Shown here piece after piece: positions 176 through 61,239 of a stretch of 64,000 nt of DNA. The notes beneath the pieces are model-generated. The model had not been told where the DNA came from. It ran no database searches and saw only the letters and a list, made by a program, of their open reading frames with translations. Position numbers and translations under genes: made by a program. The stretch's first letter is position 1; each line of letters starts with the position of its first letter. The stretch is taken from positions 3,782,001 through 3,846,000 of the forward strand of contig NC_089432.1 of NCBI RefSeq assembly GCF_026210795.1. The letters are read 5' to 3'. Source of the stretch: Rhizophagus irregularis. Its lineage: Eukaryota.

Positions 176-871
176 GTTAATACGAAATTGCAATACATCT
201 TCAATACTGTGATTGCGTTGTTTGATACATTGACAATATCATAAATATGGCTTTTTTTTATATTAAAATTTTCTAAGTATTATTTTTTCATTTTCATAAT
301 ATTGATGTTGAATATACGACTACAATGCTTATAATTGCATAGTAACGATGATGATGCTATATTATACTGAATAATCAATTGTTTTATTGCGCAGATATTT
401 ATACTTAAGTATCAGCTAATGTAAGACAAAAAAACTTAATAATAATTTCTTAAAATATTTCTGAATGCCATTTGTTTTTTTTATTATTTTATATTCTCCC
501 TATAGGCACTAATGGATATACATATCAAAAATCAAATTTATTTTACAGTATGTCAAGCAGGAAAAAAAAATCAAATTTCAAGGAAAAGCCCCTTATTTAT
601 ATGAATTATGTATCACGTGATTAACGTGCAAACCAGCCCCGTTTTTTTTTAAACTTTAACAAACCTTTTTCCTTTCTCAATTTCCCTTCCCCGTCTTTTT
701 CTCTTCATCTTGTTTCACTCTCTCTAATAAAAATCTTTAGCAGAACGTTTAGCAACATTTTGAAATTTTCCTTATTAGACAAAAATCATTACATTATGCA
801 ATGAAAATTAAGAGTTCATAACGATTTTTTTTTTAAAAAAGAAATAAGTATATTATAACTTAAATGACAAA

Positions 872-978
872 ATAACTTCGGTAATAAAATGGATTGAGAA
901 AAATCTAGAGAATGAGTATATTCATTATTTTAAATATGATGAATTTAAAATCGATGAAGAAGAAATTGGTAGAGGAAG
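872..978 (+). pseudogene. 5' fragment of a TKL-type protein kinase
   Basis: Reads WIEKNLENEYIHYFKYDEFKIDEEEIGRG, similar to the N-terminus/Gly-loop of the kinases at 31300 and 36985 (WIEEAVDKE...IGTGGFG). No further kinase sequence follows. Confidence 0.65.
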
Positions 979-984
979 GGGTCC

Positions 985-1500
985 GGAAAGATTTTTTTTC
1001 TTTTTTTTCATCTTTATTTTTTAATAAACGATTCTAATGGTTCATTTTTTTTCTTTCTTTAGATGGTTCTTTCAAGTTACTTTGGGAGACATTTTGGTAA
1101 AGTTTTTTATTTATTTCTTCCATCTTTTAACAAACGGTTCCTAACAGTTCATTTCTTTCTCTTTTTAGGCGGTTCTTTTGTATTTCTTGTGGTAAGTTAA
1201 ATTTTTTTTCTTTCTTTTTTTTATTTAACAAAACGTTAACTGGTGGTTAACTAAAATATTTTCTTGTCTTTTTCTTTTTTTTAGATGGTCAGGCCTTTGG
1301 ACGTGTGAAATTTCCAACGGTTGGTTTCTTTTACTTTTTTAAATTCTTTTGAATTAAATTTTTTTATTTTGGTAAGATGTTAACTATCATTTCATTTTCT
1401 TTCTTTGTTTTTAGACAGGTCAGGCCTTTGGATGTGTGAAATTTTCAACGGCCACGCACGTTATACTAGAAAGGTATGATGGCAGAGGAATTGTTGCGAA
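985..1500 (+). other. Intron/micro-exon array A (putative spliced non-coding transcript)
   Basis: Repeated polypyrimidine-TAG acceptors (~1062, 1168, 1284, 1413) and GTAAAG/GTAAGT/GTAAGA donors (~1096, 1192, 1372), with CTAAC/CTAAT branch sites and ~23-35-nt exons. Confidence 0.6.
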
Positions 1501-2345: not shown

Positions 2346-4091
2346 CCAGCTGGATGCCCGCGTTTCACGCGGGCCTGGCTAATTAAAATTATGAAAATCA
2401 GATACCTTTCTGCTAAGCTGTTATATAAAGTCTAGAATGGTTATTAGCATTAATTTGGAATTTTGTGGTAAATAGGGAATCATAGGCTGTGTATGGCAAG
2501 TGATTTTACAGCGCTCACAATCCTTGCGAAATATTTTAAAAATTATTACATATTAATAGGAATATTAATCATTACAAAGTATAACAGATAATGAGTGTCA
2601 GTATAAATAATATGCAATACATTTTTTATTATAATAGTTATTATAATAGTTATAGTGGTTCATTAGGAAGCCGGCAAACCTAAAAAACATTCAAAGAATC
2701 ATTAGACCTAAAAAAAGGTACCAAAATTTAAAAAAAGAAAAGAAAAAATGATTAGTAATTATGAAAAAGAATTTTTTTAAAAAAATTAAAAATATAATTC
2801 AAACTAACCTTCACTCTGAAAGGTACCTCCAAAACCTAAAAAAGAGAAAAGGGTTGTTTCCTACAAAAAAAAAGTTAAATTAGGGACATTTTTTAAAGTT
2901 TAAAATTCATTTTCAGAACTTACCCAAAGTTCTCAAAAATTGATCATCTACTAAAAAAAAGAAAAGAATGAAACATCAATAATGTTTTGTTAAAGAAATA
3001 ATGTTAGGAAAATATTATTTACCAAAATTTACATCTGTCCAAGGTGTTGCAGTACTGTCTAAACTACAAAATATAGAACACAAAATGTTAGTTTTAATGT
3101 TTCATTTCATTAAAAAATAAAAAAAATTAATGAAAAACACTTACAAATTCCATGTCTGGAAAAAGCCAAAGAACCACCCTACAGAATGCAAAAATAAACA
3201 TTAGTAAACATTTTGTTAACTAACATTATGTTAAAAGAAGCATTTTAAAAGAACCTACTAAAATTTCACATGTCCAGAATCACGAACAAACCATATAAAA
3301 AAGGAAGAAACATGATGTTAGTAATGTTTTGATAAAAAATTTTTCAAAGAAAAAATATTCACCACAATTCTGTTCGTGTATAAATTATTCCTTATTCAGT
3401 TATCTAAAAAAATGAAAAATCAAACTGTTAGAAATGTTTGATTAAAAGAAATGTATTAAATCCTTCCTTACCAAATTTCCACGCGTCTGAAGACAAACCA
3501 AGAAAACCACTGATACCTAAAAAAAGAAAGCTTTATTTTTTGGGTTTTTTTTTGGTTTTTTGCATAGTTATTAAATACCTGTAATTGCTGTTATTAGAAA
3601 TGTTCAATTCCCCTGGTAAAATCCTACTTTGAGAGCTGTGCAGGCATTAGAAATTAAAAATTAAATGTAAAAGAAAAGGTGTATTTTTTTTAAAAGAAAG
3701 GGATTTTTTTTCATCATATGGGAAAATTCAGAAACTGAAAAATATTTTTTTTTAAAAAAAAAAAGAAAGAAAATGTGTCGTATGGGAAAATCCAAAAAAC
3801 TTTTTTTTTTAAAAAAAAACAATGATGATTGCTCAATAAATTTTTTATATTTTATATTACAATTAGTACTAATTGCTATAATTTGTTTTTACGCCAATCA
3901 TTTATGCAGCCTAATTCAAGGATTAGAGCTGCTAATCAATGTCAAATGATGCGCCACTCCGAATCCCTATATAAAAATCTGTAGCACAGGGCGCAGACAC
4001 ATGATGATGGACGATCCAATTTAAATCCGCCTTTTTATGCAGGGTAGTCTTAACGTCACGGTCGCACAATGCTTTTTTTTATAGATATAGA
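2346..4091 (-). mobile_element. Non-autonomous Helitron carrying a micro-exon array
   Basis: Minus strand begins A|TCTATATCTATA (4091) and ends with an 8-bp GC hairpin gcccgcgt-ttc-acgcgggc (2356-2374) followed by CTGG|T (2346). A-T target, no TSD. Confidence 0.8.
2700..3580 (-). other. Intron/micro-exon array B inside the Helitron
   Basis: About 8 units of ~110 bp. On the plus strand, ttacc/cttac (donor), a short exon, ct-a(n) (acceptor plus polypyrimidine tract) and ttag/ttagt (branch point) recur regularly. Confidence 0.65.
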
Positions 4092-5773: not shown

Positions 5774-6149
5774 CATTGCAGAAACTTCATATTATTTTTA
5801 AACAACGTTGACACTGCGCCAAAATCACGTGATTACCGTCGTTTGTGCGTCATTATTGAACGTCATACGAACGCGTTGCAAAGGTGGGAAAATGTATCAC
5901 CATTACTATACCTATTTTACTATTGTAATTTATTTTTTACAACATTGTAAACACACTTTATTTGCATATATATTTAATAAAGCAAACTATGTTATATATT
6001 AGTACATTACTAGTTACTACGCTAGCTAACTATTAAATTATACATTATTATGCATAAAAGTAAAATTATTTAATAAACATGTTTCGCTAAAGGTAATTTG
6101 AAAAAGTCCAAAAAAATGAAACTTTTCCTTAAACGAAATAATCCGAAGA

Positions 6150-7280
6150 AAGGGAGCCTCCTACAAAAATTCTACACGTTTAAGGACTTCAAAAAGCAAT
6201 CTGTCCAATAACAAGAAGGTTTGAAGAAGCTGAGATCTAAAAAAAAAATAAAATAAACATTAAAAATGTTTCTAATTAAAGAAAACAATAAAAAGTAAGT
6301 TTTGCAAAGAAACTTACCGTCTCAAATCTATCAAAGCCCTTCTATAACTACAAAAAAAAAGTAAAAAGTAAGGATGTTTCCAAACATAACTTACTATTTC
6401 AAGATTCCAATACCCTATTCCGCTATTCGAAACTTTACAGAACCTATAAGTAAATAATTTTTCGCGATGAGGGAGCATTTTAAGTTCTTGTATCCGCTCT
6501 TCTGTATCCAGAATAAAAGTCAAATTTTCGCACTGAAGCCTCACATGTCAAAAAGTCTGGACATCTGAGAAGTATTGAAATGTAGAACCTAGAAAAAGAC
6601 ATGACTGTTTAAAAAAAGAAAAAAGATGATGAAACGTTAGTTAAACGTTTCGTTAAATAAAAATGAAAAAAATTTAACTTACCGCAAGAAATACAAAAGA
6701 ACCGCCTAAAAAGATAAAGAAATGGACTGTTAGGAACCGTTTGTTAAAAAATGTAAGAAATAAATAAAAAATTTTACCAAATGTCTTCCAAAGTAACTTG
6801 AAAGAACTGAACCATCTAAAGAAAGAAAAAAATGAACCATTAGAACCGTTCATTAAAAAAATAAAGATGAAAAAAAATGAAAAAAATCTTACCAGAATCC
6901 TGATATCCCTTTTTCTACTTATTTCTTCTTCATCAATTTAAATTCATCATATTTAAAATAACGAATATACTCATTCTCTAGCTTTTTCTCAATCCATTTT
7001 TTTACCGAAGTCATTTTGTCATTTAAGTTATAATATACTTATTTTTTTTTTAAGAAAAAAAATTTCATCATTATGAACTCTTAATTTTCATTGCATAATG
7101 CAATGATTTTGTCTAATAAAGAAAATATCAAAATGTTGCTGCTAAAGATTTTATTAAACTGAAGAAGGTGAAACAAAGAGGAAGAGAAAAGAAGGGTGAG
7201 ATTGTGAGAAAGGAAAAAGGTTTAAAAAAAAAAGTGGCTGATCTGTTAAAATTGTCACATTAATCACGTGATACATAATT
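6150..7280 (-). other. Inverted paralog of 603-1290: E-box promoter-like region, kinase 5' fragment (7014-6905) and micro-exon array C
   Basis: Reverse complement aligns with 603-1290. ATG at 7014 gives MTSVKKWIEKKLENEYIRYFKYDEFK. Donors at ~6890, 6776, 6680, 6315. Confidence 0.75.
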
Positions 7281-7559: not shown

Positions 7560-9439
7560 AAAACGTGATTCTTTTCAAAAAAAATGATGATCATTTACGT
7601 AATCATGTATTCCGTATTCATATAGTTGATCAGCAAATCCAATTATTTTTAAGTTCTTGGTAAAACTTATTAATATTTTTTAAAACTATCGCTCTTTTTA
7701 CTTTTTTTATTATTTTTTTTTACACTTTTTTTTGTACAATGGATCGGAATTTGTTTTCATTTAGTAATTTTTTTTTATTTTTTTTTTTAGGATTTTTCAA
7801 TTTAGAAATTTTTTTTAACAGGTCGGATTTTTTTTCATTAGAATTTTTTTTTTATTTTTTAATTTTTTTTCCAACAATAGATCGGACTTTGCCCTTTCTT
7901 TATGTTCGGTAACTGACGTTTACTAATATTAATTGGTAATAGTTGATGTCTTCTTGGTGATGAGAAATTTATTATTTTTTTTTGTAACAATTAATTATTC
8001 AGAATTGATTTTGTGATGAGTCTGATAAACCATAAATTCTATAATACTGCAAACATTTGTTTAATATTATAATATTTGTACTATAAAGTTATTGTAATAT
8101 TAAATCATTCTAATTTCATCATATTGTAAATACACTTCACATTATTGTATTGTAAATATTGTAAATATAAATTACTGTATGTTCAGAATTATACAATGTC
8201 TTCTTAAAATTAAATTGTTAGTCTAATATTAAATACAAATCTACATAACTACTACAGTCTTTTCTTAACATGCAAAAAATTTTTTAATATCATATGTAAA
8301 AGAATTTTTTCTGAGGGTACTGACTACTTTTCGGAACCCCTTCTTAGGCTTTTTTTTTTCACCTTTTTAAATTTTTATTTTATTTAATTTTATTGTCTCA
8401 CTTTTGCAATCAAAATTATTTAGCGGAAAAAATAAAAACTAATGGAACATTTAGCAAAAGCTACAAAGTGAAGAATGGTAGAGTAGCAAGAGAAATTTGT
8501 ATGATGCTATCAAAGAGGGAGGGAGTACGTGGATCCTAGGCCATTTAGTGCAATTATTCTCAGGCTTATTGTATACTATTTGTTTTGTTCTTGTAACTAT
8601 TGCTAGCTAGATTCCATCTCCTTTTCTACTAAAACGAAATGAATTATATCTACGAAATTTCGCCAATCTAAATCACTCTCACCTACACAGATTATATAAA
8701 ATTTTTCGATTTTAGCTAAATTCCGTAAGAGTAGTTTCCAGAGATTGAATCGTATGATGATGCGAGTATGAAAGACATGGCGTAGAAGGTCCTTGGTCAT
8801 ATTATCTGGCTGTTAGAGGAGTCACAAAAGGCGGATTCAGCTGTTAAAGTAGATAAAGAAAAGTAAATAAAAAGGGTGTCGAATAATCACAGTAAAATCA
8901 GACACTGTAGAGTCGTATAGAAAGAGCGTAGCTCGCATCCCAAATTTGTATTTATCTTTTATTGTATTAATAAAAAAATTTATTTTATGTACACAGAAAC
9001 ACGTACACGTCTTAAAAGGCAAAGAACTTAAACGTCAAATCATTAATATTAATAGCTACATTATTGTAAATATAATGCTAAACGTCGCCTGGGCGATTGT
9101 CGCCTGAGTTTTTTTTAAATATGTCACATGATGTACAATATATAAAGAGTAAATTTACTATTAATTGGCTGACGGCTGATTTTTTCAAACTTGGCTAATT
9201 TTGATCGGCTAAACTTAAAAATTTTTATATTTTAAAAAAATTTTTTTTTTACAAACATATTTATCCAAAATAATCTTATCTAATGAAATTTTATTTGCAA
9301 ATATTAAAATTTAAATCACACATTTAAAAAAATCACTGTATTTATTTTTTAATGAAGTGATACAAATAAAAGAAAAGATAAGTAAATTACAATGATCAAG
9401 AAAAAAGATGCTAATAAAAAAACAAAATAACAATGGAGT

Positions 9440-9900
9440 AATGAGAAGTAATAGAAAATGAAAGGGAGTAAAAAAGAGTAATGAGAAGTGATAGGAAGCA
9501 AAAAGGAGAAATAGGGCATGATGGAAGATGAATAGGAGTGATAGGAAGATGAAGAGGAGTGATGGGAGACGAAAAGGAGTGATGGGAAGATGAAGAGGAA
9601 TAATGAGAAAACGAAGAGGAGTGATGGAAGACGAAAAGGAGTGATGGGAGACAAAAAGAAGTGATGGGAAGATGAAAAGGAGTGATGGAAGACGAAAAGG
9701 AGTGACGGGAGACAAAAAGGAGTGATGGGAGACAAAAAGAAATGATGGGAAGTAAACAGGAGAGAAAAAGAAATAACGGAAAATGAAAAGATGTAATAGA
9801 AAATAATGGGAGACGAAAAGAATGGAATAATGAGAAGTAATAGGAGGGGAAAAATTATGAGAGACAAAAAATAAAAAAATGATCATGATAGGAGGTTGGG
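9440..9900. repeat. Purine-rich minisatellite (~21-bp unit, ggagtgatgggagacgaaaa-like)
   Basis: Directly visible tandem units; the overlapping F/L/S-rich ORFs are by-products. Confidence 0.85.
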
Positions 9901-9959
9901 TAGCAAAAGGTAATGATAGGAAACCAAGTAAAAAATAAACCATAAAGTAAAAACAATGA

Positions 9960-10290
9960 AGTTAGTAAGAAACGAAATATAAGATAGAAACAAAATAAAA
10001 AAATAAAAAACATACCTTTATTAATTGTAGAACCGAAAGAACTAAAAGATCTAAAAAAAATGAAATAAAATTAGTGAAAAACGAAATATGAAACAGAAAC
10101 AAAATAAAAAAAAATAAAAAAATAAGAAACGAAATGTAAAGTGAAAACAACTGAACCTTAATTGCAGAACCGGAAGGACTAAAAGACCTAAAAATAATGA
10201 AATAGAGTTAGTAAGAAACAAAGTGTAAGGATGTAAGTTAGAAATAAAAATAAATAGAAAAAAAGAAAAATACCTCGAGACCGAAATAGC
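9960..10290 (-). other. Short intron/micro-exon array E
   Basis: Minus strand: ctaac...ttttag|gtcttttagtccttccggttctgcaattaag and ctaat...ttttag|atcttttagttctttcggttctacaattaataaag|gtatgt, i.e. two paralogous ~31-35-nt exons. Confidence 0.5.
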
Positions 10291-10587
10291 TGAGAAAACG
10301 AACCTTGAAAATGAGATTCGATAAACAAAATAAATATGACGCGATCATGTGGCCAATCTGGCCAATCAAAAATATTAAATTTGCCGCATGATCGAAGACC
10401 CATTCCCAATATAATTTATATCATTCTAATATTATAATTATAATTTTTTATTAATTTTTGTTAACTAATTATTACCTATATTAAATTCCTAATTATAAAC
10501 AAAAACTGCTGTAACCATCTTTAATTTACTTAGTATTACATTTTAATAATTTTAATACTAAAATTTTCTATTTAAACAAACTCATTG

Positions 10588-20889: not shown

Positions 20890-21213
20890 TTATTCCTGAT
20901 TTCCTTGTTTTACAGATTTTTCATACCAAATAAATTGCTTTTTATCTATGTCTTTTGTAATTCCATCTCCTTTTTCATATATTGAAGCAAGATTTACATC
21001 ATTTGCTAAATTTGCAGCATTTTGATATAATTCAAATGCTTTTTGATTGTCAATTTTAGTTCCGATACCTTCATCATACATAACAATATCCCAACATCAA
21101 TATTCCATTTGAATACTCTTCTTCAGTTGTAAATAATTCAAAAATCTTTTTCAACATCTATTGCATTTTTATAACATATACTAAGAATATACATTGCTAT
21201 CATAATACCGTTA
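20890..21213 (-). pseudogene. Sel1-repeat fragment (3' end of a kinase-Sel1 gene)
   Basis: GIGTKIDNQKAFELYQNAANL...YEKGDGITKDIDK...WYEKS, close to 29121-29500, with deletions and frameshifts. Confidence 0.85.
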
Positions 21214-24080
21214 GTTTTAATGATCAGATACTGACCGTGAACATAGAATTAAAACTCATTTTATCGTTCAAGGTTATGAAACAGAAATTAAAAATCTTAA
21301 AATCAGATTTCTGAACTTTTAGAAGCTTCTCATCATCCACGTAAATCTTCCTTGGCTGGAACACCACCAGGAAGAGATTCTTCGATCCTCATATTTATTC
21401 ACTTGATGATGTTATTCATCGTCTTAATAATAATGATGACAATAATAATAATAATAATAAAGAGAATGCTGAGAAGAAAGGTAAAAAAGAAGAAGAAACG
21501 TTCTTCAAAGGAAAGTAAGATAAGATCTGATGGTCACTTCCTAGTTTCCAATTCGACTTCTACTAAAATCTCACCTATTGGTCCTTCTTCATCTCATCAA
21601 CTTGGACATGTCGTCAATGATCAAAATTTGGAAGAAACTAAAATCTTATTCACAAAATATGATGATAAAGAAAACGCTGAAGAAGGAGATGATGAAAATT
21701 TGAAAGTTGAATTATTCAAATTAACTCAAAAATTAAGAAGACGTAGCAAAGACCAGAGATAAGCTTGAAAAGGACAAGGAACAACTCAGACGAGATTACA
21801 TGATAATAAGGAGTGAAGGCTCTTTACATGATGGTCCTATTTAAGTCAATTAATAAAACAACCCTCATCAACTAGGAGAACTACTTAAGAGTGAAAGTTA
21901 TGTTGATCAATTGATTCGCAATCATCAAAAAGAAAAAATTGATTTCTCCGATCAATGGTTCAACTAAATATTCTCAAGGTGGCACTGGCTGCTAATCTCA
22001 ACAAGAACATACCGTTATTGATCTTACCCGTACGGTACATCAAATTCAAGCTGATATTGCCATTAAAGAACAACTCGTTTCACAATTGGAACGTGCTGAA
22101 CAAGAATATACTAATATGAAAGCTCAATAGAACATGCTGCTGTTGAACGTGGAATCGAAATTGAAACAATACTCAAGAGTATGCGTGCTCAAATTAAACA
22201 ACTAAAAAGTGAAAAGATGCGAATGATGAAGCGTATGAAAGATGAAGCTGAACGTGTCCGTGAAATAACTGAACATAATCAACGTGAAATTCAAAGTCTT
22301 CGTCGTAAAGAAAAAGCTGCCCAAGAACAAAAGTAAGAACTAATGAAATGCAAAAAAATTATGCTTGAAAAGAGACAGGAAGAAGTTTCACTAACGAACA
22401 TTAAACTTAAATCAGTTATGGAATTACTCAAACGAACCACTACTCCAAAGTCATTTACCAAGGCTTTCCGTAATCACATACGAAAACAATCAATATCTAG
22501 AAATGATGAAGACAGAAAGGAATCGGGACGATCCTCTGATGATTTTAGTCCTATCTATGATGAAGTATTTGCCAGTGGTTATGATAAGAAAAAACTTCTT
22601 GATGAAGAAATCTATAAATATATTAGTGATCGTCAAACATTGACAATGATGATGGATGAATGGATCGTTAAAAGAATAATTACAAGAGGAGAAGGATGAA
22701 TTATTTGTAGAACGTGAAAAGATAATTACTAGTGAAATTGGAAATGAGTTAGGAGGAGATGCTCAAGCATTAGATGATAAGATTGAGATGATCACCTCGG
22801 AAATTGCTTATATTAATGCTAAGATTCATTCTTTACAATTAAGTATTGCCGGTGAATATAGCAAAGAATCTGAAGATAAATCACGAAAGAATAGTATCAA
22901 GTCTAGTAAAATTGAACGAAATTTTGATGAATATGAAAGTTATACAATATTGGAATCCTTCTTTAAGGAAATTGTTGATTCTCGAACTGGAGATTGGTCT
23001 TGATGAATGACCTTAGAACAACAAGAAAAGACAATTATGGATTTAAGAAAAACTTTATTGGCCATGAGAAGAGCTGCAGTTCTTACAACAAGTGAATATG
23101 AAAAGAAAAACAGAGAACTTGAAGAAGCTTTACGTCTCGGTGAAAGATCACCAAGTCCATCAACTCTGGAAAAGAGAGAATTGCAGATGGATGATATTGA
23201 AAATAGTACTTTCAATGCCATTTCCTTATTTGATCATAAATTAGATCAAGCTTATGCAGAAGTCGAAGCTGCAGTATCAGCAGGAACTCTTGGAACTTCT
23301 GGTCAACTGGGAACGCAATTCATATCTCTTTGACGATGATGCAGCTTACTTCTCTTCACTATTGTTTGCAAGTCCAATGAATACTGGTAATAATAGTGCA
23401 AATTTCTTAAGACCACCAATACCTCCCGCTTGGTTAAATCTTCAACCACGTGAAAATGTGCTCGAACAAACTAATGAAACGATGCCAGATGTTCCAACAA
23501 ATCCAAGAAGAAAAGATTCTGGTAATAGTGAATCTAGTGGTGATAACAATAATAATGTAAAGAGAAGGATTTCAAATGGTCGAAGATTAAAGAGACCATC
23601 TAATGGTCCATCTACACCATCTACACCATCTACACCATAAGATGAAAACATTTCTCTTTTAGAATGTACAAGATCACTTAATAGTCAACCTTTAGAACGC
23701 ACAAAATCACTCAATAGTCAACCTTTAGAACGTACAAGGTCCATTAGTCAACCTTTGGAACGTACTAGATCCAGTGACCAACATTTAAAACGTGCCAGAG
23801 CTGGTGTTCAACTTTTAAGTTCACGACGAAGTTCGCTTTGTGATGGGTCAACAATTCTTGCACATAATCGACAAAGTAGTTCAATAAGCATGGGTTTCCA
23901 CTTAGAATCAGGTGGTGATGGTTTCACGTGATAGCGGATATTTTAGCAGCGGTGATAAGCGAAGATCACAAAGCAGTATGGAACGACGAGGTTCCAAAGT
24001 ATAACAGCAGCATATCATATACGACAAAGTCCATATGGATGTAGTTCACCCGATAGTGATGATGCAGCAAGCGTAACATA
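21211..24080 (+). pseudogene. Decayed duplicate of the kinesin stalk/tail (no motor domain)
   Basis: Colinear with ~41136-44400, with multiple stops, frameshifts and internal deletions (ORF pieces 21352, 22343, 22788, 23007, 23254). Confidence 0.95.
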
Positions 24081-24381
24081 TTTCGTGTATCATTTAAGCT
24101 ATTATTCAAGCAGTCCACATTACCAAGAATTTTTAAAATGAAAAGTTGGCTTGATAATAGAATTCTATTTGAATGCCAGAAAATTATTCACTTCTAGAAG
24201 AACAGAAACTTCAGTAATATAAAGCAGTAAAGACCTATTAATAAATTAGTTGAGGATGTTGAAAAATTTTAAAAAAGTGTACTACAGTATTCATTAACAT
24301 GGAAGGCCATACTAATATAACACTTGTTAATACAGTAATTTACCATTGTAAATTATTTTATTTAGTTTTTTTTAATTGTAA

Positions 24382-24616: not shown

Positions 24617-26285
24617 TTTAAATTAATTATAAATTAAAATCTGTACCACTGACGTTTTAAGCATAGGATTAGGGTAGGCTGAATGGCTGAAAGATTACCT
24701 TTAGAGTTAAATGTTGACAACTCTACACATGAATCAGTGAATCACGTGCCCGAGCTTTATGCGGGATTTAATAAATTTGTAAAAAAGAGTATCATCATAA
24801 TTAAACACTTTTCTATCGTGTCTATTGTTAAAAATAAATCACTTACTTAACAGTTAAGAGTTCTTTTATTATTATTTCATTATGGTCAGTTAATTTACAC
24901 AAATATTTATGTGCTTTTATGTGCAAAATTAATAATTGGAAATTTTAAAGCTACAATCCACGACTCTAAACTCTTATTCCTCAACATAAAACATTACTAT
25001 TATTATGAGAAACCTTCAAATAGAGGTTAAAAATATGTTATATAATGAACTTAATATAAGATAATAATTCTCTAATATCGGTCTACGCCTGATTTTTTGT
25101 GATTAATTTAGACAATTTTAACGATTGTCAACGTGTATTCATTTCATTTATATTGTTTAGAATATTAAAAATATAATTTGACTTAATATAAATGTAATAA
25201 ATGTTATTTAGAAAAATTCCATAAAATTAAGAAATTTTCAAGAAAATTTCCAATTAAATGAATATTGATTAAAAAAAGATGATGGTTTTGATGATTTTAT
25301 AATCAATAAATTTTTTTGATAATTTGATTAATATATTACCAAATGATTTTGTTGACATGAGCATTGAGTAATGATTTTTTTTTATTTTTGAACTAGATTT
25401 CAATAATTCCTCAAAGATGCCTAAGTTGGTAAGACTTCAATATTTGAAAAAGTTATTTTAATCGTATAATTCGATTGATCATTGTGACGGATAAAAAGCC
25501 CTAGCCAAGTGGCTGACACGTGACTACACATATATTTCGTCACTCTTTATTTTCACGTGTTAGTGCGAACGACTATTTATTTATAAATACAGATCTTATA
25601 CGATGGAATTTATATACCCTCGAGTGGTTCTCGAGGCAATTATACGGGTTATTATTATAACAAAACCCTTCCCTATTTTAAGCATATCGTCAATATAGAC
25701 GATTCCGCCAGTATTCGGTGGACTTCTTGTAATTTTTTACATAGTGGTACTTGGGAATCTTATAGAGATACTCTATTATTCGCGGATTGCAATTATTTAC
25801 CAGATTTCACTTTTCTTAGATCCCCATAGTTCACATTTTTTTCTTATTATTTTTTTTCTTCCTTTAACCTTTTCTCTAGTGTAAGGTGGTAGGAAATGCT
25901 TCGGTTGATCCTCCACGGTTTCTATTAAATTTTCGCACCAGGGTGGCGCTGTCTTTCGGGCGGTTTGATTATAGCGTAGTTTAGATAGCGTTTGACTTTT
26001 TATTTTAATTAGTTCTTGTCTATCTTTCTGTAATCTTGTTCACATGGATATTAAAAATAAAAATAAAAATAAATACGATGGAATTTATATTACGTTGGAA
26101 ATTCACATTGAATATTGTGGAAATATGTGGAAATCTAACCAAAAATTATTTAATAAAAAAATCAATAAAATAATTACTGGTAAATATTATTATATTAAAG
26201 TTATAGAAAAATACAAAAAATTTTAATATAAATTAGTGATAATTGATTTTTTTTTTTATTGATCCTTATCATTAATTACGAATTA

Positions 26286-38240: not shown

Positions 38241-39121
38241 CAGTTATTTGTTATTAAAATCACCAAATTCGAATTCCCAGTTTATACGTGCACAAAATTG
38301 TAAAACGTAATACAAAATTAATATAAATAGACTATCATTTGGACTAAATAATAAGTTGAGTAAAAATCTACATTTACGAAACTTCAATTATTCGACTCCA
38401 GTTCACTAACAAAAAGCCCATTCCTCACCTACATAGTTATTTTAGTGTGTATCATTAGAAAGTAAGTATGCTTTAATAAAACAAAATGTAAATAGAAAAT
38501 TTATATAGTCATAATAGCTATGAATATTTTTAAAAGTATTTTAAAACTCAATGAATATTGTTTAAAAAATTTTTTTTATGATAATTTTTTATAAAATTGT
38601 CTATTTTTTATATTTTTCAAGTCATATAACTAATTCACGTTTCACATTATAGGAACTTTACACTCAAACTGATTGTAAAACATACTTTCAATTTACAAAA
38701 AAAAATTACAGAAATTATTGTGCAAAGTGAGATCCCATATTAAACGGATATTATCAATATTATCAAATCATATTTATTATATTTTTGGCTTAAAAGAAGT
38801 ATTTATCAAATTATTGTATAGCAAAACCAAATAAAAATTTTTTTAATGTTCGTCCCCAAACTTACTACGCCTTATGTAATGCTTTGTGTAACAAAAATAA
38901 ATTAACACGTTGATTAATCACCTCTGGTGAATTAATTATTCTTATTTAATATATATATATATACTACATATTACTTTCTAGTTTCTACCTTTTTTTAAGT
39001 TTTTTTTTTGTAATCCAAACGCATATATTCGTTTGTATTATAAACAATAACCCCTTTTTAAAAAAAATTCGTTTTTTTTCTTATTTTTAACAAATATATA
39101 CATAAATACACACGAAAAAAA

Positions 39122-41381
39122 ATGACCTCAACTTCCGTACGGTAAGTAACTGTAAATCAAAAAAATCAAATAATTCCTTTACTATTTTAATCTTTATTCC
39201 TATTTCTTTCACATTCTTGTTTTCTTCTACCTTTTCTCCCTACCGTTTTTCGTTTCTCACTCATTTTCCATTCCGTCCTCTCTAGAGTTGCTTTGAGAGT
39301 AAGACCACTCAATAACAAAGAAATACTACAAAATTGTAGTGAATGTTTAACAATAATACCTGACGCACCACAAATACTCATTGGAACCGATAAATCATTT
39401 ACATTTGATTATGTATTCCCATCGGATACTGAACAAGAAGAAATATTTCATGATTGTGCAAGTCCGCTAATAGATAAACTCATGGAAGGGTGAGTACACA
39501 GGAAAAAAAAATTCGGCCTCACGTCGCACGCGCAAGAAGAATCAAATTTATATCAAAAAAAAAATTTTTTATCAAATTCGGATTTTTTTTGATGATATCA
39601 CTTTTATTTTATCGTGTCATTGTTAAATTATTATTTATTATTATAATTTAATTATTTTAGTTATAATGTCACAATCTTAGCATATGGGTAAGTAAATAAC
39701 ATAATTAACAATTATTATCTAAATTAATTTGCATGTTTATTATTTATTTATTATTTATTATTCAACCCTTCCCCCCCTCCCTACTTTTTTAGTCAAACTG
39801 GTAGTGGTAAAACATATAGTATGGGTACTGCTTTATATGGTTCAGATATTCCACCCGAATATCAAGGTATGTTTGTCCCTTGCATCATTTTTTAAAATGA
39901 TTATCAAAAGTTGATCATATGTTTATCAAATTAATGACGTCATTTATTATTAGGTATCATTCCACGTGCTATAAGTAAATTATTTGCCGACCTTAACGAA
40001 CGAAAAGAAAAAAATCCTTCCTATGAATTTGAAGTTTATGTATCATTCTTAGAATTATATAATGAAGATTTTATAGACTTACTTAATAAAAAAGGAAAGA
40101 GTGATTTAATGATAAGAGAAGATGCAAATAGTCAAATATATTGGGCTGGTGTAAAAGAAGTTCAAGTTTCGGATTCAGATGAACTCTTAGGGTATGTTTC
40201 TATTATGTTTATAATATGTTATATAAAAATATAAATATAATTTATCAATTTTACTATCAAAATTTTTTAGACAATTACAAAAGGGTTCACTGTGTCGAAC
40301 TGTCGCTTCAACAGATATGAATATGGTATCTTCAAGATCACATGCTATATTTTCCGTAATACTGAAACAAACAAGAGTAGAAAATTTAAAAGAAAATAAA
40401 GAAAATGATGCTCCACCACCTGAAACTTCAACCACTTCAAAAAGAAAGAGTAAACAAAAATTATTAACATCAAAAGTAACTTCAAAATTTCATTTCGTAG
40501 ATTTGGCTGGTTCTGAAAGGGTAATGTATTTAATATATATATATATTTCTTCCTTAATATTCTTGATTATTTTCTTAATATTAATTTTTTTTTTTTACAT
40601 AAATAGTTAAAGAGAACTAACGCCGTAGGTGATAGAGCAAAAGAAGGAATAGCAATTAATGGTGGTTTACTAGCCCTTGGTAATGTAATTAGTGCTCTTG
40701 GTGATGAATCAAGAAAGGTCACTCATATTCCTTATAGAGATTCAAAATTAACACGTTTATTACAAGATTCACTTGGTGGTAATAGTCAAACTCTTATGTT
40801 GGCTTGTGTTTCACCAGCTGATTCTAATTTTATGGAAACCTTAAGTACACTAAAATATGCTAATCGTGCTCGTAATATTAAGAATAAAGTTAGTGTTAAT
40901 GAAAGTTATGGTGGTAATTCTATTGAAATAAATCAATTACGTGGTCAAATAAGTAGATTAAAGATGGAGATTCAAACTTTACGAGCTGGTGGTTGTAATG
41001 AAGAAACAAGTCGTAAACATGAAGAAGAAATTGAGAGTCTTAAAAATGAATTAGGAATGACAAAATGGAAACTTAAAAATGTTGAACAAGAACTTATCAC
41101 TACAAAAGCTGAAAGGAACACTCTTTTAATGGAAATTAGTTTTAATGATCAAGATCTTTCAGATGCTGATCGTGAACATAGGATTAAAACTCATAATATC
41201 GTTCAAGGTTATGAATCAGAAATTCAAGATTTTAAAAATCAAATTTCTGAACTTTTAGCTGCACAAGCTTTTCAACATCTAAGTAAATCTTCTTTGGCTG
41301 GAACAACAACAGGAAGAGAGAAAGGTCATATCAAATTCTCCGATCCTCATATTTATTCATCTGATGAAGATATTCATAATC

Positions 41382-41416
<35 letters not shown>

Positions 41417-44230
41417 GAGAATAGTGAGAAGAAAGGTAAAAAGAAGAAGAAACGTACTTCAATAAGAGCTGATGGTCACTTCCCAGTTTCTGATGAAACT
41501 TCTACTACTAAAATCTCACCTGTTGGCCCTTCCTCATCTCATCATCAACTTGAACATGTCGTAAATGATCAAAGTTTGGAAGAAGCTAAATCCTTATTCA
41601 CACCATATGATGAAGACGAAGAAAATATTGAAGAAGAAGATGGTGAAGATGGTGAAAATGTTGATGGTGAATCATTCAAATTTACTCGAAAATTGAGAAG
41701 GCGTAGCAAGACAAGAGATAAGCTTGAAAAGGCCAAGGAACAACTCAGACAAAGTTACATGATAATAAAGAATGGAGGTTCTTTACATGATGATCCTATT
41801 TTAAGTCAATTAATAAAACAACCTTCATCAACTAGGAGAACTAAGAGTGAAAATTATATTGATCAAATGATTCGCAATCATCAAAAAGAAAAAAGAAGAT
41901 CAAGCAGTGTATCTTTCAGTGAAATTCAAATCATTGAAGTACCAGAATGGCAAGAATCTAATCCACAACCACCACAACCTACTCGTCGTACTTCAAATTC
42001 AGGTTGTTCTGTTAGTTTCTCCGATCGACCAATTTCTTCTGGTTCAACTGAATATTCTCAAGATAGCACTGATTGCTCATCTCAACAACAACAACAAAAT
42101 GTTATTGCTCTTACCCGTATGTTACATCAAATTCAAGCTGATATTGCTGTTAAAGAACAACTCGTTTCACAATTGGAACGTGCTGAACAAGAATATACTT
42201 ATATGAGAGCTCAATATGAACAAAAATTGGCTGATATGCAAGAAGCTATAATTACCTTACAACAAGAAAGAAATTCTGCTGTTAAACGTGCTCAAAATGC
42301 TAATACTGGCGTTAGTACTCGTGATAAGAATTCAATCCTTGTCGAACTTAAATCTCGTTATGAACACAAGATGAAACGTTTAATCCAAGAAATTGGTGAA
42401 CTTCGTAGAAAATATAATGAAGCTACTCAATCTACAACCACGTCAAAGAATCAAAATGAAACAATGCTCAAGAGTATGCGTGCTCAAATTGAACAACTAA
42501 AAAGTGAAAAGATGCGAGCGATGAAGCGTATGAAGGATGAAGCTGAACGTGTCCGTGAAATGACTGAACGTAATCAACGTGAAATTCAAAATCTTCGTCG
42601 TAAAGAAAAATCTGCTCAAGAACAAAAGAAACGTTTTGAAAGAACTAGTGAAATGCAAAAAATCATGCTTGAAAAGAGACAGGAAGAAGTTTTACAAACA
42701 AATAGTAAACTTAAATCAGTTATGGCCTTACTCAAACGAACCACTACTCCAAAGTCAATCACCAAGGCTATCCGTAATCACAAACGACAATCAATATCTA
42801 ATGATGAAGACAGAAAGGAATCGAGACGATCCTCCGATGATATTAGTCCTATCTATGATGAAGTATTTGCCAGTGGTTATGATAAGAAAAAACTTCTTGA
42901 TGAAGCAATCTATAAATATATTAGTGGTCGTCAAACATTGACAATGATGGATGAATGGATCGTTAAAAGAAATAATTTACAAGAAGAGAAGAATGAATTA
43001 CTTGAAAAACGTGAAAAAATAATTACTAGCGAAATTGGAAATGAGTTAGGAGGAGATGCTCAAGCATTAGATGATAAGATTGGGATGATCACCTCGGAAA
43101 TTTCTTATATTACTGCCAAGATTCATTCTTTACAATCAAGTATTGCAGCCGAACAAGAAGAAAAAGCTGCTGAAAATAGCAAAGAATCTGAAGATAAATC
43201 ACGAAAGAATAGTATCAAGTCAAGTAAAATTAAAAAGAAACTTTCTTTCCTCTTACCAGAAAATGCCACACCTGAAGCATCATATGACGTTGCTGTTCGC
43301 ATTTTACGAAATTTGGATGAATTTGAAAGTTATACAATATTAGAATCCTTCTTTAAGGATATTGTTGATCTTAAAACTGGAGATTGGTCTCGACAAATGA
43401 CCTTGGAACAACAAGAAAAGACAATTATTGATTTAAGAAAAACTTTATTGGCCATGCGAAGAGCTGCAGTTCTTACAACAAGTGAATATGAAAAGAAAAA
43501 CAGAGAACTTGAAGAAGCTTTACGTTTCGGTGGAGGATCATTAAGTCCATCAACTCCGGAAAAGAGAGAATTACAGATGGATGATATTGAAAATAGTACT
43601 TCCAATGCCATTTCCTTATTTGATCATAAATTAGATCAAGCTTATGCAGAAGTCGAAGCTGAAATATCAGGAACTTTTGGTCAAATGGGATCATTATCAA
43701 GACGTAATTCATACTTCTTTGATGATGATGCAGCTTACTTCTCTTCTTCACCATTATCTGCAAGTCCATTGAATACTGGTAATAATAGAACAAGTTTCTC
43801 TTCAAGACCACCAATACCTCCCGGTTGGTTAAATCTTCAACCGCGTGAAAAAGTACTCGAACAAACTAATGAAACAACGCCGGACGTTCCAACAAATCCA
43901 AGAAGAAAAGATTCTGGTAATAGTGAATCTAGTGGTGATAACAACAATAATACAAAGAGAAGGAGTTCAAATGGTCGAAGATTAAAGAGACCATCTAATG
44001 GTCCATCTACACCATCAACACCAAAACCATCAACACCAAAAGATGAAAATATTTCTCCTTTAGAACGTACAAGGTCCATTGGTCAACCTTTGGAACGTAC
44101 CAGATCCAGTAATCAACATTTAGAACGCGCCAGAGCTGGTGTCCAACTTTCAAGTTCACGACGAAGTTCGCTTCGTGATGGGTCAACAATTCTTGCACAT
44201 AGTCGACAAAGTAGTTCAACAAGCACTTAG
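39122..44230 (+). CDS. Kinesin-4 family (KIF4/KIF21/KIF27-like) motor protein, 7 exons
   Basis: Exons ~39122-39141, 39286-39489, 39661-39687, 39793-39867, 39954-40191, 40271-40520, 40607-44230. Motifs [19 protein letters not shown] (P-loop), [38 protein letters not shown]; long coiled coil. Confidence 0.95.
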
Positions 44231-45587
44231 AACCAGGGGGCGATGGTCCACGTGATAGCGGATATTTTTAGAAGCGGTGATAAGCGAAGATCACAAAGCA
44301 GTATGGCACGACGAGGTTCCAAAGATCATATTATATGCGACAAAGTTCATATGGACGTAGTTCACCCGATAGTGTAGTGATGATGCAGCAAGCGTAACAA
44401 GTACGACCAGTGAATGTGAAAAACGTGCATTCATGTCACATCATACACATACAAGATCAGAAACACCGACAGCATGAGATAATATTTTTGATCGTTTATC
44501 AAAGAGTCAACCACATTTGAGTTCAGCAAAGAGATATAACGGTGAGAGACATGATTACTACTTACTAGTGTCTCCAGTGTCTCCAGTGGATATCCTGGTG
44601 GTGTGGAAGACACTTTGGCAACATTAGAAAGGAGGCGAGAAGAATATGGCGAATCGCCTGAACCAAAAGTACAAGCATAATTTATTAATCTTAGAATACT
44701 AATATTAGATTTTTAATTCTCTCGAAATTTAATATCTTTTTTAGACTAATTATTAGCGGCTAATAAATCTCTCGGGACATTTAATAATTTAGAAACTTTC
44801 TCGCTTACATTTTGTTCATATTGTAAAAATTTTATTTGTAGATATAAGTGTACTTTTTATTTTCTTTTTATTATTTTTTTTCTTTCTTTTTCTTTTATCT
44901 TTCTTATTATTCTCCAACCATAGATAGTAACCAAAAAAACAGATGAGATTTTTTTTTGTATATATGAATAGTATATGAATCATATGATTTAATTTTGAAT
45001 TGTTTATTTGTAATTTATTAAATAGATGCTAATAATAATAATATAATTATAATTTAATAAATACAGTATTATACATACTGCCCAAATTATTTTGGGATGT
45101 CATAATTAAAATTATTGTTTTTTTTGGTTATTAGGGATTGACTTTTTTTTTTAAAAAAAAAAATTAATTTGTAATTATAAAAAAAGAGTGAATGATTTCT
45201 CACTATGGGTTGAGATTTGATATTACCCCAAGTCAAATAAAATGTCAAAAATGGTATTTATGACCTTTGTTAAGGTTTTAACAAAGATAGAATTATTAAA
45301 ACACGTAACACGAGATTTATTATGACGAATTGAGAAATTGGGATTAGATTTCACGTTTTTTAATCTAACCGTAATTCTCAATTTGGACGCAAAAACTCTC
45401 GTTATTAGTATAGATGAAACCTAAATTATTTTTATTAGAAAAGGAAATCACTTACCATTTTTAATTTATTTCATAATAAAAAAAAGCTGACTCAAATAAA
45501 AGTGAAAATCGTTTCCTATTTTTGATTTATTTTCTCTAAAAAGAGTTTTTAAATATTCAAAAAATTTACATTCTTTTTTTAACTTGA

Positions 45588-45840: not shown

Positions 45841-46292
45841 TATATATATTTTTATTATTTATTAATAATTTATTTACTATGATAAATAAATAAAAAGTAC
45901 TATGAAAGTTATCGAAAAAAATATATGATATTACCATAAAATAATATCATAAATAAATATCTCAAATAAATAAAATAATTTTTTTTCTTTTTTTTTAATT
46001 AAAAAAAAAAATGTTATCTACCATTATCGGTTAAATAAAAAAAACAATGGAAGATTTCGGTAAATGTCAATAATTATGTAATCAAATTTTCATTCAAGTA
46101 AAAAAATTCGGACAAATTGATATATCTATAAATAAATAAAATGTTTTTTTTTACAAATATATAATAATTATATCAAAATATTTGATCATAAAAAAAAAAT
46201 GATTCTATTTATTTATTATGAAGAAATATTGACTTCATTTTTTAATTTTAATAACACTCTTAAAAAAAAATATTTAATAATATGGATTTTAT

Positions 46293-46669
46293 AATTTTCC
46301 GCTATAGCGGAGTTCCGCTAGTGTCACGTGACATGAAGATCATTTCCTTTTTAGGAAATTTGTGTAACATTATATGATTTGACTGGAATTACGGAACTTG
46401 GCCGGAATTAACCATGTGACGAATAAGGTGACAAATATGATTTTTTCATTAAAAAATTCTAAGTTCAAATAATACTTAGTAATTTTTGAAAGCTTGAGGG
46501 TGTGATACAGGGTGATGGTTTAAACGTTACACAAAATTCCAAAAAAAGGAAATTTTACTTCTGATGAAAAACGAAAATTATTTATGCAAATGGGTTACAC
46601 ACATTTTCAAAAAAGGAAATGATCTTCATGTCACGTGACACTAGCGGAACTCCGCTATAGCGGAAAATT
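46293..46669. mobile_element. Young MITE with perfect ~60-bp TIRs (superfamily unassigned)
   Basis: aattttccgctatagcggagttccgctagtgtcacgtgacatgaagatcatttccttttt and its exact reverse complement. Confidence 0.88.
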
Positions 46670-46790
46670 TTAATTTTCTATCAATAATATCTCCTTTTTT
46701 TTGAAAAAAAAAAAAAAGAAAAAAAAATCATTTAAGAAAAATATTAGTAAAAAAAATATCTATTCTTTACATAAAAAATAAATAAATACT

Positions 46791-49405: not shown

Positions 49406-49512
49406 CTTATTTTTATATAATTTTCAAGGTTAGATATCAACAATGCTTAGCGATCATAGTAAAAACCACTAGTCAAAAACCAATATATCGGGTAGCAGAT
49501 ATGTATCAGATA

Positions 49513-51172
49513 CACTCCCGCGCCAAAAGTTTAGGACCACCCAATAAATTTTTAAAAAAATGGTTTTTTTTAACCAACTAATATTTTAATAAACTATAAA
49601 AAGTAATTTATAATTACTTTAATGGATAAAGAACAATTTTTTATTATTAGTTAAAAATGTAAAAATAAATTATCGGTAATTTAGTTATCCAGCATTTCGC
49701 AAAGTCACGTGACTAATGTTTACATCACGTGATTTTTTGTGATGAAGGAAAAAAATTCGTAAAATGAATAAAATATAAAAACTTTTTATTAAACCTCTTG
49801 TTATGTATAATAAAAAAAAAAATTCTGGTCCATAACTTCACAAAATTAAAAGTTAAGATAATGAAAAAAAATTTTAATAAAAAATGCTTAATTTTTGGTA
49901 AAAATGTAAACAAAAAAACCAATTTACCGAAACTAACTTTATAAAAATATAATTAAAACATTCCTCAATATCTTGTGGGATATCCACGAGCTTTTATAAC
50001 TGCCTCAATTCTACGGTTCATGCTCTCCACAAGCTTTTGGTAGACCTCACATGAAATTTCTGACCAACATTCTTGAAGAAGTTCCTCCAATTCTCCTAAA
50101 TTTTTAGGATGATTTTGCTTTGCTCTTATACGCCTCTCAAGCTCATCCCAAAGATGCTCAATGGGATTGAAAGGTTCGGCTCTGCCCCGGCCATGATAGC
50201 AAATTTATTCCCATTTCTTCACAGAACTCTCTTGTTCTTGCACTTGTATGAATCGGTGCATTATCTTGTTGGAACAAATAATCACCATTTTCTTCTTCAA
50301 ATCTTTCCAAGAAAGGGATCACGTGATAGCCAAGTATCTCTTCTATATACCTTTGACTATTAACTCGACCATCAATTCTTACCAAAGGGCCCAATCCAAA
50401 CCATGTAAAACACCCCCACATCATGACTCCACCTCCACCATGCTTCATGGTTGGAACAAGGTAATTAATATCATATTTTTCTTTTGAAGACGCCAAACCC
50501 GAATTTTTCCATCATTCTGGAACATAGTAAATCGAGACTCATCACTCCATACAATTTTTTTCCAATCATTTATAGTCCATAAGCGTCTTTCACGAGCCCA
50601 ATTTAAGCGTATTTTTCGATTACACTCACTAACACAGGGTTTTCTTAAGGCTGCACAACTATTATATCCCATTCCATACAATGTTCGTTGTATGGTGCGC
50701 CTACCTACATCATTTCCAGTGGATTCCATAAAAATTTTTCTAATTTTTTCTTCAGGTTCACGTCGGTTTTTATTAATAATAGCTTTAAGATGCCGTTTAT
50801 CCCGTTCAGTTAGTTTCTTAGGACAACCACTTCTGGGAGCGACAGTAACAGCACCAGTTTCACGATATTTTGCTATTATATTATGAATTGTAGTTTTTCC
50901 ATAGCCTGTTTTATTTGAAATAGCTCTTTCTGAATCACCGGCTTCATAAAAACCGATAACTTTTCCACGTTCAAAATCCGTTAGTTCTCTTTTTTTAACC
51001 ATTTTGCTTTTAAACAAAAAAAAAAGCTGCTAAAATTTTGTGTAATTATCATTACTAATCAATAAATAACGTAAATAGTTTTTATTTATGTTACACAAAT
51101 GCGTAATTATTACTGTTTAGGTGTTGTTTATGGCGATCATAAAGGTGGTCCTAAACTTTTGGCGCGGGAGTG
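49513..51172 (-). mobile_element. Full-length Tc1 (DD34E-type) transposon
   Basis: TA|CACTCCCGCGCCAAAAGTTTAGGACCACC ... exact 29-bp reverse complement|TA; encloses a transposase. Confidence 0.97.
49965..51002 (-). pseudogene. Tc1 transposase with two frameshifts
   Basis: HTH region, WSDESRF, KHGGGGVMMWG, FQQDNAPIH, WPGQS..NPIEHLW, GYPTRY*; frame breaks near 50480 and 50175. Confidence 0.92.
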
Positions 51173-51407
51173 TATGTACCTGATATGTGTAGTATTAATG
51201 CAGAAAATCGGGCACCTGATATGTGTAAGATATGTGTAAATATATATATCGTATACGTATCGGGTACCGATATGTATATGATATGTAAATGATATGTATA
51301 TGATATATATATTTACACATATCTTACACATATCGGGTACCCAATTTTCTGCATTAATACTACACATATCGGGTACATATCTGATACATATCTGCTACCC
51401 GATATAC

Positions 51408-54400: not shown

Positions 54401-56691
54401 AAGAGATTGTTTTTGGGAATTTTTTAACTAAAGGGAACGTTTGGAACATTTTTGATAGAAAATTTTAAGAATTTGTTTGGGAAATAGTTTTTTGAGAATT
54501 TTTTAACTAAAGGATAATTTAGGGTATTTTTGATAGAGAATTTTCTAAGAGTTCGTTTAGGGAAATTATTTTTTGTATTTTTTAATTAAGGAGATCGTTT
54601 AAGGCATTTTTTGATTGAGAATTTTCTAAGAGTTCGTTTAGGGAAATTATTTTTGTATTTTTTAATTAAGGGGATCGCTTAGGGCATTTTTGATAGAGAA
54701 TTTTCTAATGATTCATTTGGAGAGATTGTTTTTGAGAATTTTTTAACTAAAGGGAACGTTTGGAACATTTTTGATAGAGAATTTTCTAAGAATTTGTTTG
54801 GGAAATGGTTTTTCGAAAATTTTTTAACTAAAAGGATTATTTAGGGCATTTTTTGATTGAGAATTTTCTAAGAGTTCGTTTAGGGAAATTATTTTTTGAA
54901 TTTTTTAATTAAGGGGATCGTTTAGGGCATTTTTTGATAGAGAATTTTCTAAGGATTCGTTTGGAAAGATTATTTTTGAGAATTTTTTAACTAAAGGGAA
55001 CGTTTGGAACATTTTTGATAGTGAATTTTCTAAGAGTTCGTTTGGGAAATAGTTTTTTGAGAATTTTTTAATTAAAAGGATCATTTTTAGGGCATTTTTT
55101 GATAGAGAATTTTCTAAGGATTCATTTGGGGAGATTATTTTGAGAATTTTTTAACCAAGGGATCGTTTGAAACATTTTTGAGAGAATTTTCTAAGAGTTC
55201 GTTTGGGGAGATTATTTTTAAGAATTTTTTAACCAAAGGGATCGTTTGGGACATTTTTTGACAGAAAATTTCTAGGAGTTCATTTGGGGAAATTATTTTT
55301 TGGGATTTTTTTAACTAAAGGGATCATTTAGGACATTTTATTTTTAATAAAGAAATTTCTAAGAATTCATTTGGAAGATTTTTTGAGATTTTTTTAATAA
55401 ATCTTCTAAGGGTTCATTTGAAGAAATTTTTTAAAAAAGTTTTTTAACTAGAAGGGTCATTTCAAATATTTTTTTGATGAGAAATTTTCTAAAGGTTCAT
55501 TTGGAAAGATTTTTTTTTTTGATAATTTTTTTAATCGAAAGGGTCATTTGGATTGAGAAATTTTTGTTTTACGACGTAATTTTACCAAATTTAATTATAA
55601 ATGTATTCAGGCTATAAAATAACATGTGGTAAGTTACATTACGTAATATTGTTATCATGTGATCACATGATTTAAATATTTACATTTCGCATTTTTGTTT
55701 ATCTTATTAAAACCTTTTCTTCGTTCTCAATTTTTTTTTACTTAAAAACACAATTTTTTATCTATTTAATATATCCAGAAATACATATTTTTATTATTTG
55801 TTATATCTAGAAATGCATAAAAAGGTATATATTACTAATATTTCTTTTCTTTATTAATGTTTTTCTACCATTTTTTTTTCGTTTCTTTCTTTTCTTTTAC
55901 TAATACTCCTACTAATATATTTTTTATTATTTTTTTCTACTATATTAACATTTTTACTATTTAATATTTTCTATTAATATTATATTACTACTGATATACG
56001 TTCTCTTTCTACTAACATTTTTTATTCTACTAACTTTTTCTTTCTGCTAATGTTTCTACTAATATTTTCTATATTTATATATCTATACTAATATTTTTTA
56101 ATAACATTCTCTTTTCTCTTACTAATATATTTATCATTAATACTTCTTTTAAATAATCAAACAGGTATAAGCAAATAAGTGATTTTATTTTTATGCTACT
56201 TTTAGTAGAAGTTATATATTATATATATTTATTCAAGTATTCAAGTATAATTAGTATAATTGTTTTTTTTTAATTAAAAAGTGTAAATAAATTTAAATTG
56301 TAATAAAGTTTTGAATTAAAATTAAAAAAAATATATAAATTATGATTGCATTTTATAATTTTTTTGCCTGAATTAAATTATAAATCTACTAGTATTAATA
56401 CGAAATCATTATCCTATATCTATCCGTCTGATATCTGTATGATATCTGTATGATATCTATATGATATATATCATAATATATCGGGTACCCAATAAGTCTA
56501 TTTAACTACCCGATATGTGTAAGATGTATATGTGATATGTACATGATGTGTCACCGGTTTTCTACATTTCTACTACACATATCGGGTACCTGATATGTGT
56601 AGCATTGTTAAATATCATACACATATATCACATATATTGTACACATATCAGGTACCCGATAGGTACCCGATAGTATTAATTTTGACCAGTG
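51408..56691. mobile_element. 5.3-kb non-autonomous CACTA/EnSpm-type element containing a satellite
   Basis: TAC|CACTGGTCAAAAT...ATTTTGACCAGTG|TAC (13-bp TIR, 3-bp TSD); subterminal atatcgggtacc repeats at both ends. Confidence 0.88.
51690..55550. repeat. Satellite array, ~40/80-bp unit with higher-order variants
   Basis: gatagagaattttctaagagttcgtttagggaaattattttttgaattttttaattaaggggatcgtttagggcattttt and variants repeated for ~3.9 kb, degenerate at both edges. Confidence 0.95.
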
Positions 56692-61225: not shown

Positions 61226-61239
61226 AACACTGGTTTAAT

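Follow-up and report, generated by a model that had tools for sequence, protein, structure and literature searches.

A conserved upstream E-box element as putative promoter of a dispersed micro-exon family in Rhizophagus irregularis

The micro-exon genes of Schistosoma consist of runs of very small, symmetric exons that maintain one open frame, and their secreted products carry a signal peptide. In Rhizophagus irregularis, a mycorrhizal fungus of the Glomeromycotina, about one quarter of the genome is unclassified repeat and 41% of the small-RNA loci are unannotated, according to the portions of PMC8647823 consulted. The unclassified repeats, class B orphan genes and unannotated small-RNA loci of this fungus are repetitive, expressed, free of known domains and labelled 'hypothetical' in the consulted portions of three papers (PMC8647823, PMC10234402, PMC11075540), and in this they resemble the family presented here. 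Those portions give no structure for such loci, whereas here there is a defined anatomy comprising a putative promoter, a pyrimidine tract and micro-exons. With it, one unclassified R. irregularis repeat family, which the repeat library of PMC11075540 may hold as an unnamed consensus, gains an anatomy that can be tested.

Here, we analyse a window of 64,000 nucleotides (contig NC_089432.1, positions 3,782,001 to 3,846,000 of the forward strand) that includes four micro-exon arrays, A to D. Our main reading, to which we assign a probability of roughly 0.55, is that a motif upstream of the arrays is a conserved promoter element, an E-box followed by a tract, of a dispersed, spliced and probably non-coding family. 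The features concerned are the following, in window coordinates:

582-628, plus strand: motif copy A, with AAAGCCC box, AT-rich spacer and E-box TCACGTGA at 613-620
640-725, plus strand: poly-T/CT-rich tract of A, 84% pyrimidine over 70 nt (composition)
860-985, plus strand: captured 5' end of a tyrosine-kinase-like kinase gene (WIEKNLENEYIHYFKYDEF...IGRG), by sequence match; start codon ATA in A, ATG in B
969-1414, plus strand: array A, introns 969-1062, 1097-1168, 1192-1284 and 1320-1414 (joints for introns 1, 2 and 4; intron 3 predicted)
Plus strand, on the same basis: array A exons of 34, 23 and 35 nt, and a last exon from 1415
2924-3516, minus strand: array D, a related micro-exon array without upstream motif (predicted)
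6130-7230, minus strand: locus B, with tract, frameshifted kinase-derived exon, micro-exons of about 38, 23, 48, 51 and 30 nt, and last exon from 6236 (predicted)
7262-7280, minus strand: motif copy B, 3' half only, where the A/B duplication begins (sequence match)
61250-63160, minus strand: array C, 14 predicted GT-AG introns (79-111 nt) with two hairpins each
Minus strand: array C exons, 13 internal ones of 25-43 nt in a tandem unit of about 123 bp, last exon from 61408 (predicted)
63161-63520, minus strand: long pyrimidine tract/first exon of C (composition, array prediction)
63510-63556, no strand: perfect 21-bp inverted repeat between the C motif and tract (repeat search)
63594-63643, minus strand: motif copy C, E-box doubled at 63612-63607 and 63603-63598 (sequence match)

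The G+C content across the window ranges from 21 to 35%, and its gene content includes kinase/Sel1 genes, a kinesin, an ML-domain gene and a Tc1-like transposase. A KIF21-like kinesin gene and a decayed partial duplicate of it (81-88% identity) are located at 21200-24100 and 39130-44400, a Tc1/mariner-like element, whose terminal inverted repeats measure 32 bp and whose transposase frame is broken, at 49510-51175 (minus strand), and a small element with inverted arms of 80 bp, each holding GTCACGTGAC, at 46289-46673. Elements of a family ended by CAC(A/T)GGT and flanked by 3-bp TSDs (TTC, TAC) lie at 57796-58327 and 51408-56691, the 5.3-kb copy containing an 81-bp satellite (51806-55401, about 44 copies), and unpaired homologous ends at 57180 and 60248 flank a 5'-truncated Transposase_21/Plavaka-like frame.

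The three motif strings reported in a preliminary description of this DNA were all found at the positions it had given. Copy A (582-619, plus strand) and copy C (63643-63607, minus strand) are identical in 33 of 39 alignment columns, and the likeness runs on to about 628. Their alignment score of 45 compares with a mean of 27.9 (sd 1.9, maximum 33) in 100 block-shuffled windows, and the score of the two upstream regions, 48, was reached by none of 1000 shuffles. Among 756 pairs of CACGTG-anchored 40-mers the A-C pair ranks fourth, and the three pairs above it belong to known repeats, namely the inverted repeat at 46.3-46.7 kb and the kinesin duplicate. The idea of a motif shared by three loci stands only in part: all three copies are present, but the copy at 7280 is half a motif, without the AAAGCCC/TATTTATAT part, and belongs to an A/B duplicate (604-1241 and 7280-6639, about 640 bp, 82.5% identity), at whose edge it lies. 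Since copy B sits at the start of this duplicate it is not independent, and the window holds two independent copies of the motif.

These figures bear on the suggestion that the A-C match arose by convergence, with a common E-box in AT-rich sequence lying beside pyrimidine tracts as in many promoters of the genome. The E-box core is indeed common, TCACGTGA occurring 11 times in the window against 0.32 expected (about 35-fold enriched), the match was picked post hoc, and a similar AAAAGCCC...CACGTG is found at 25495-25522 with no array; the A-C score nevertheless lies above that of every shuffle and of every CACGTG-anchored pair not belonging to duplicated repeats, and the relationship of the downstream arrays rests on separate evidence, described below. 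We consider convergence very improbable.

Several further occurrences were recorded. At both A and B, a second TCACGTGA follows the motif at a distance of about 1.4 kb downstream (1990-1997 and 5825-5832), which could be chance, the word being frequent. At 25495-25560, AAAAGCCCTA stands about 20 nt ahead of a CACGTG, with another CACGTG 37 nt further on and neither tract nor array, and at 38305-38330 (minus strand), 1.3 kb upstream of a kinase gene, there is a borderline motif match (score 35, against 33 for the best shuffle) that has no CACGTG. The viral contigs and prokaryote genomes scanned for the motif gave 0 matches, and the sole match in a metagenome (L001, 6001-6022), on a grass-like contig that has no array and does not match the window by BLAST, was rejected as chance. 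The summed DNA depth over the motif was about 330 as against 19-42 for single contigs, a value that is no measure of copy number.

At loci A, B and C, the motif, the pyrimidine tract and the GT-AG micro-exon array follow one another in this order and in one orientation. The 20 CACGTG sites of the window make 40 pairs of site and orientation, four of which (614+, 7265-, 63598- and 63607-) then show a 70-nt stretch of at least 84% pyrimidine, the other 36 reaching at most 67%. The same four pairs, representing the three loci, have 4-8 array matches each within 1.3 kb; one other CACGTG pair has a single antisense palindrome match within this distance. Among the 40 CACGTG orientations, the succession put forward earlier is therefore specific to loci A, B and C. 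Array D lacks a CACGTG in the 1.3 kb preceding it, and the element is present at three of the four related arrays.

The grouping of arrays A to D into one family sharing intron and exon sequence is supported by comparisons in which the motif played no part, so that the family link, first proposed from the motif, is borne out independently of it. A profile of the 13 exon-centred units of C matched all four A introns (E 0.005-0.4), five places in B (E 0.005-1.6) and six weak places in or just beside D (E 1-4), all on the array strand; its background consisted of few unrelated matches, at E of at least 1.5, and the best match in a reversed-window decoy had E 4.7. With a covariance model built from the 14 introns of C, B or D introns made up seven of the top eight matches in 2800-61300, and all four A introns were matched, two only partially. 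Moreover, exon 4 of A and one exon of D share 15 of 16 bases, the top result among 276 comparisons. Array C itself has grown by tandem copying of an exon-plus-intron unit. An array-like locus E at 9135-10360 (minus strand) shows CACATG at about 10347, a T-rich tract, and two or three micro-exons followed by a pyrimidine-rich tandem repeat of 20 bp; neither C model (exon-unit profile or intron covariance model) matched its array (10330-10016, minus strand), which was kept outside the family. Beyond the window, a profile of the locus-A family matched 18 proteins, 17 of them named Rhizophagus irregularis, and three loci of the A/B subfamily, under one locus-tag prefix, are on three different multi-Mb contigs, which makes this subfamily dispersed.

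For evidence of splicing, region 1-2600 was compared with contigs of three runs guessed to be RNA and of one DNA run (X6). The joint 967>1062, with intron 969-1062 removed, is present in X20, and the joint 1095>1168, with intron 1097-1168 removed, in X18 and X20 from two studies, both with GT..AG ends. The joint 1317>1414 (intron 1320-1414 removed) occurs in X20 in a copy with one base changed, with GT..AG ends once that base is placed, and X19 has a matching loose end for this intron. None of the three joints is present in the DNA run X6. For intron 1192-1284 no joint was found among the contigs of the probable RNA runs, some of which retain introns. Three of the four predicted introns of array A are thus joined out in contigs of these probable RNA runs, and splicing of this array runs in the direction leading away from the motif. 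Many contigs are paralogues, 22 of 38, 7 of 18 and 18 of 41 in the probable RNA runs being less than 90% alike, and the joints therefore show splicing of the family and not of the locus A copy alone. The contigs of the probable RNA runs, which cannot show start sites, give almost no cover over 523-783.

The first exon of the A/B subfamily, overlooked in the preliminary description together with the hairpin introns, is kinase-derived: exon 1 of B matches the start of kinase P0020 in 24 of 25 residues. A reading in which the A/B subfamily is a young de novo protein-coding family, with micro-exons joined to the promoter and 5' end of a kinase, a product of 120-170 residues, and the motif as a promoter possibly inherited from the kinase, draws on the spliced form of A. 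This form reads open through 97 codons of the kinase frame (for its micro-exon part, p is about 0.05), its final 61 residues are identical to database model P0015, its frame (x) is the one used in 14 of 27 database models of the subfamily, and some models repeat a 12-residue (36-nt) exon in frame. The open frame of A, however, has no Met, B is frameshifted relative to A, and most A-B differences in the kinase segment alter residues. The 27 models begin differently and read exons 2-3 in frame x (14), y (10) or z (2) or lack a frame call (2), one model showing both x and z, and Pfam found no family in the three that were scanned. Array C has the motif but neither kinase piece nor open frame, with none of its 13 internal exons divisible by 3 and with its three frames containing 12, 8 and 9 stops over 436 nt (9.9 in shuffles); when one unspliced frame of C, a weak query, was searched against proteins, nothing matched. 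Neither of the kinase genes at 31.3 and 37.0 kb has a clear motif, the borderline match with score 35 lying 1.3 kb upstream of the second. We regard a coding family as quite improbable; the product of the family is probably non-coding, and the 'hypothetical proteins' of the A/B subfamily, with frames that conflict between loci, are probable mis-annotations.

The C introns are predicted to form one stem of 13 pairs, which begins inside the donor, and another of 11 pairs around the branch point. In these stems 94.4% of cells are paired, as against 37-53% in slid controls, and two-sided changes occur in 7 of 24 pairs, although the introns are tandem copies, such that p-values are inflated and the change counts overstate independent events. 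The median folding z is -5.6 for the 14 C introns and +0.2 for 14 ordinary introns of the window; the 15 introns of A, B, D and E have a median of -0.69 (p 0.056 versus controls), and strong hairpins are confined to C. Four or five distinct self-complementary versions of the inner donor stem were distinguished by eye, and the wobble counts (G-U 11, A-C 7) do not separate the RNA from the DNA level. The palindromes may be maintained at the DNA level, and the perfect 21-bp inverted repeat and doubled E-box beside the C motif suggest that they may also arise there. Rfam gave 11 weak matches in 61000-64000, all far below the gathering score, and none in 400-1900, and as regards a snoRNA or miRNA host gene, no C or A intron matches a known RNA family in Rfam. 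Introns with hairpins lying over donor and branch point, and with compensatory changes, would be unusual substrates for the spliceosome.

Fungal promoters can have a T/CT tract behind an upstream activating site, and the order of motif, tract and spliced array suits this layout. The shared promoter suggested in the preliminary description accordingly fits the family link and the splicing of array A away from the motif, but its wording as E-box plus TATA fails: the sole TATA consensus common to A and C, TATAAATA, lies upstream of the E-box on the strand opposite the arrays. C alone has an additional sense-strand TATATAAA. Against the promoter reading are the lack of a motif at D, the half motif of B, the number of independent copies, which is two, and the shared TATA consensus that points away.

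Under the promoter reading, the CACGTG box would be bound by a bHLH factor, RiPho4 or similar; RiPho4 binds CACGTG/T in R. irregularis, according to the portion of PMC9895418 consulted. The T/CT tract would help to set the start site downstream, RNA polymerase II would transcribe the array, and the spliceosome would remove the 70-110-nt introns, probably slowed by the hairpins over donor and branch point. The product, having no stable reading frame, would likely be degraded or enter small-RNA pathways. The motif appears to be the best-kept piece between the subfamilies, and we propose that this is because the copies need it for transcription; read in this manner, it provides a phylogenetic footprint of a cis-element for a fungus whose promoters have received little study. 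Dispersal of the family has likely occurred as passive cargo of DNA transposons or by segmental duplication.

The motif had also been proposed as the terminus of a mobile element, an idea the boundaries do not bear out: the A-C likeness starts at 582 and the A-B likeness at 604, which leaves no common boundary, and neither TIR nor TSD is seen at the motif. A related possibility is that the motif is a subterminal sequence, transposase-binding or terminal, of a non-autonomous DNA transposon such as CMC/Plavaka, with the arrays as cargo and their transcription incidental. Elements of the CMC/CACTA/Plavaka type have TIRs starting with CAC at both ends and 3-bp TSDs. Capture of gene fragments is typical of non-autonomous DNA transposons, and TCACGTGA stands near the ends of other repeats in the window (46324/46631, and 49705/49725 by the end of the Tc1-like element). 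Array C lies to the right of the unpaired CACAGGTCGAA end at 60248, which is about 1 kb downstream of the array, is homologous to the unpaired end at 57180, and is placed exactly where the Transposase_21/Plavaka-like frame (60246 to 58527) breaks off; as this end cuts the frame, an interrupted CMC-type element encloses array C. However, the window does not contain the mate of the 60248 end, and C may have inserted independently as a nested insertion; no CAC-type end lies near A, B or D, and a relaxed search found no CAC-type end or TSD at the motif of A, B or C. We hold this transposon origin of the motif to be unlikely, though deserving of attention, and it is compatible with the promoter reading, as both may hold. 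Two candidate sets of ends were rejected, CACTA at 508 with TAGTG at 2010 for A, a 5-base match with no TSD (by eye), and CACTGGT at 61228 for C, which is within chance. The DUF3504 tyrosine recombinase, the hallmark of Crypton/Glomhopper elements in the consulted portion of PMC13465315, was found in none of the 11 frames scanned (10 of the 36 frames of at least 100 aa, and the kinase fragment).

A much broader idea, which we regard as speculative and rather doubtful, is that the arrays represent an undescribed class of fungal RNA genes that spreads with its E-box promoter, grows by tandem copying of exons and hairpin introns with self-hidden splice signals, and captures 5' ends of expanded families, such as the tyrosine-kinase-like kinases. 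Members of such a class might be a regulated source of small RNAs against these families or raw material for mycorrhizal orphan genes. No description of these arrays was found in the open-access literature searched, and the anatomy of the family is apparently undescribed.

The family shares features with several known systems. Its tiny exons are like those of the Schistosoma micro-exon genes, but here the exons are not multiples of 3, share no frame and are separated by tiny introns. As in gene-capturing transposons (Pack-MULE, Helitron, CACTA), there are dispersed mosaic copies, a captured gene 5' end and a spliced chimeric RNA; in contrast to these, no terminus or TSD was found here, and the family's own unit, copied in tandem, gave rise to most exons. 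Helitrons begin with 5'-TC, carry a 3' hairpin plus CTRR and insert between A and T. Non-coding host genes of snoRNAs, for example GAS5, likewise have many short non-coding exons and structured introns, whereas the present introns match no snoRNA family in Rfam and their hairpins overlap the splice signals. The introner-like elements (ILEs) and same-gene intron duplications treated in PMC3609843, of which portions were consulted, are, like array C, multi-copy introns with stable predicted hairpins and compensatory changes. Exon and intron are here copied together in tandem, as in the same-gene type, and not put into unrelated genes, a comparison that applies to this window. ILEs are about twice the length of ordinary introns in that account, while the C introns measure 79-111 nt against 71-171 nt in 14 controls; conversely, the consulted portions report no extra stability for same-gene duplicates, whereas the C introns are strongly structured. 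The family is therefore not an ILE, and resembles instead a same-gene intron duplication with ILE-like stable structure.
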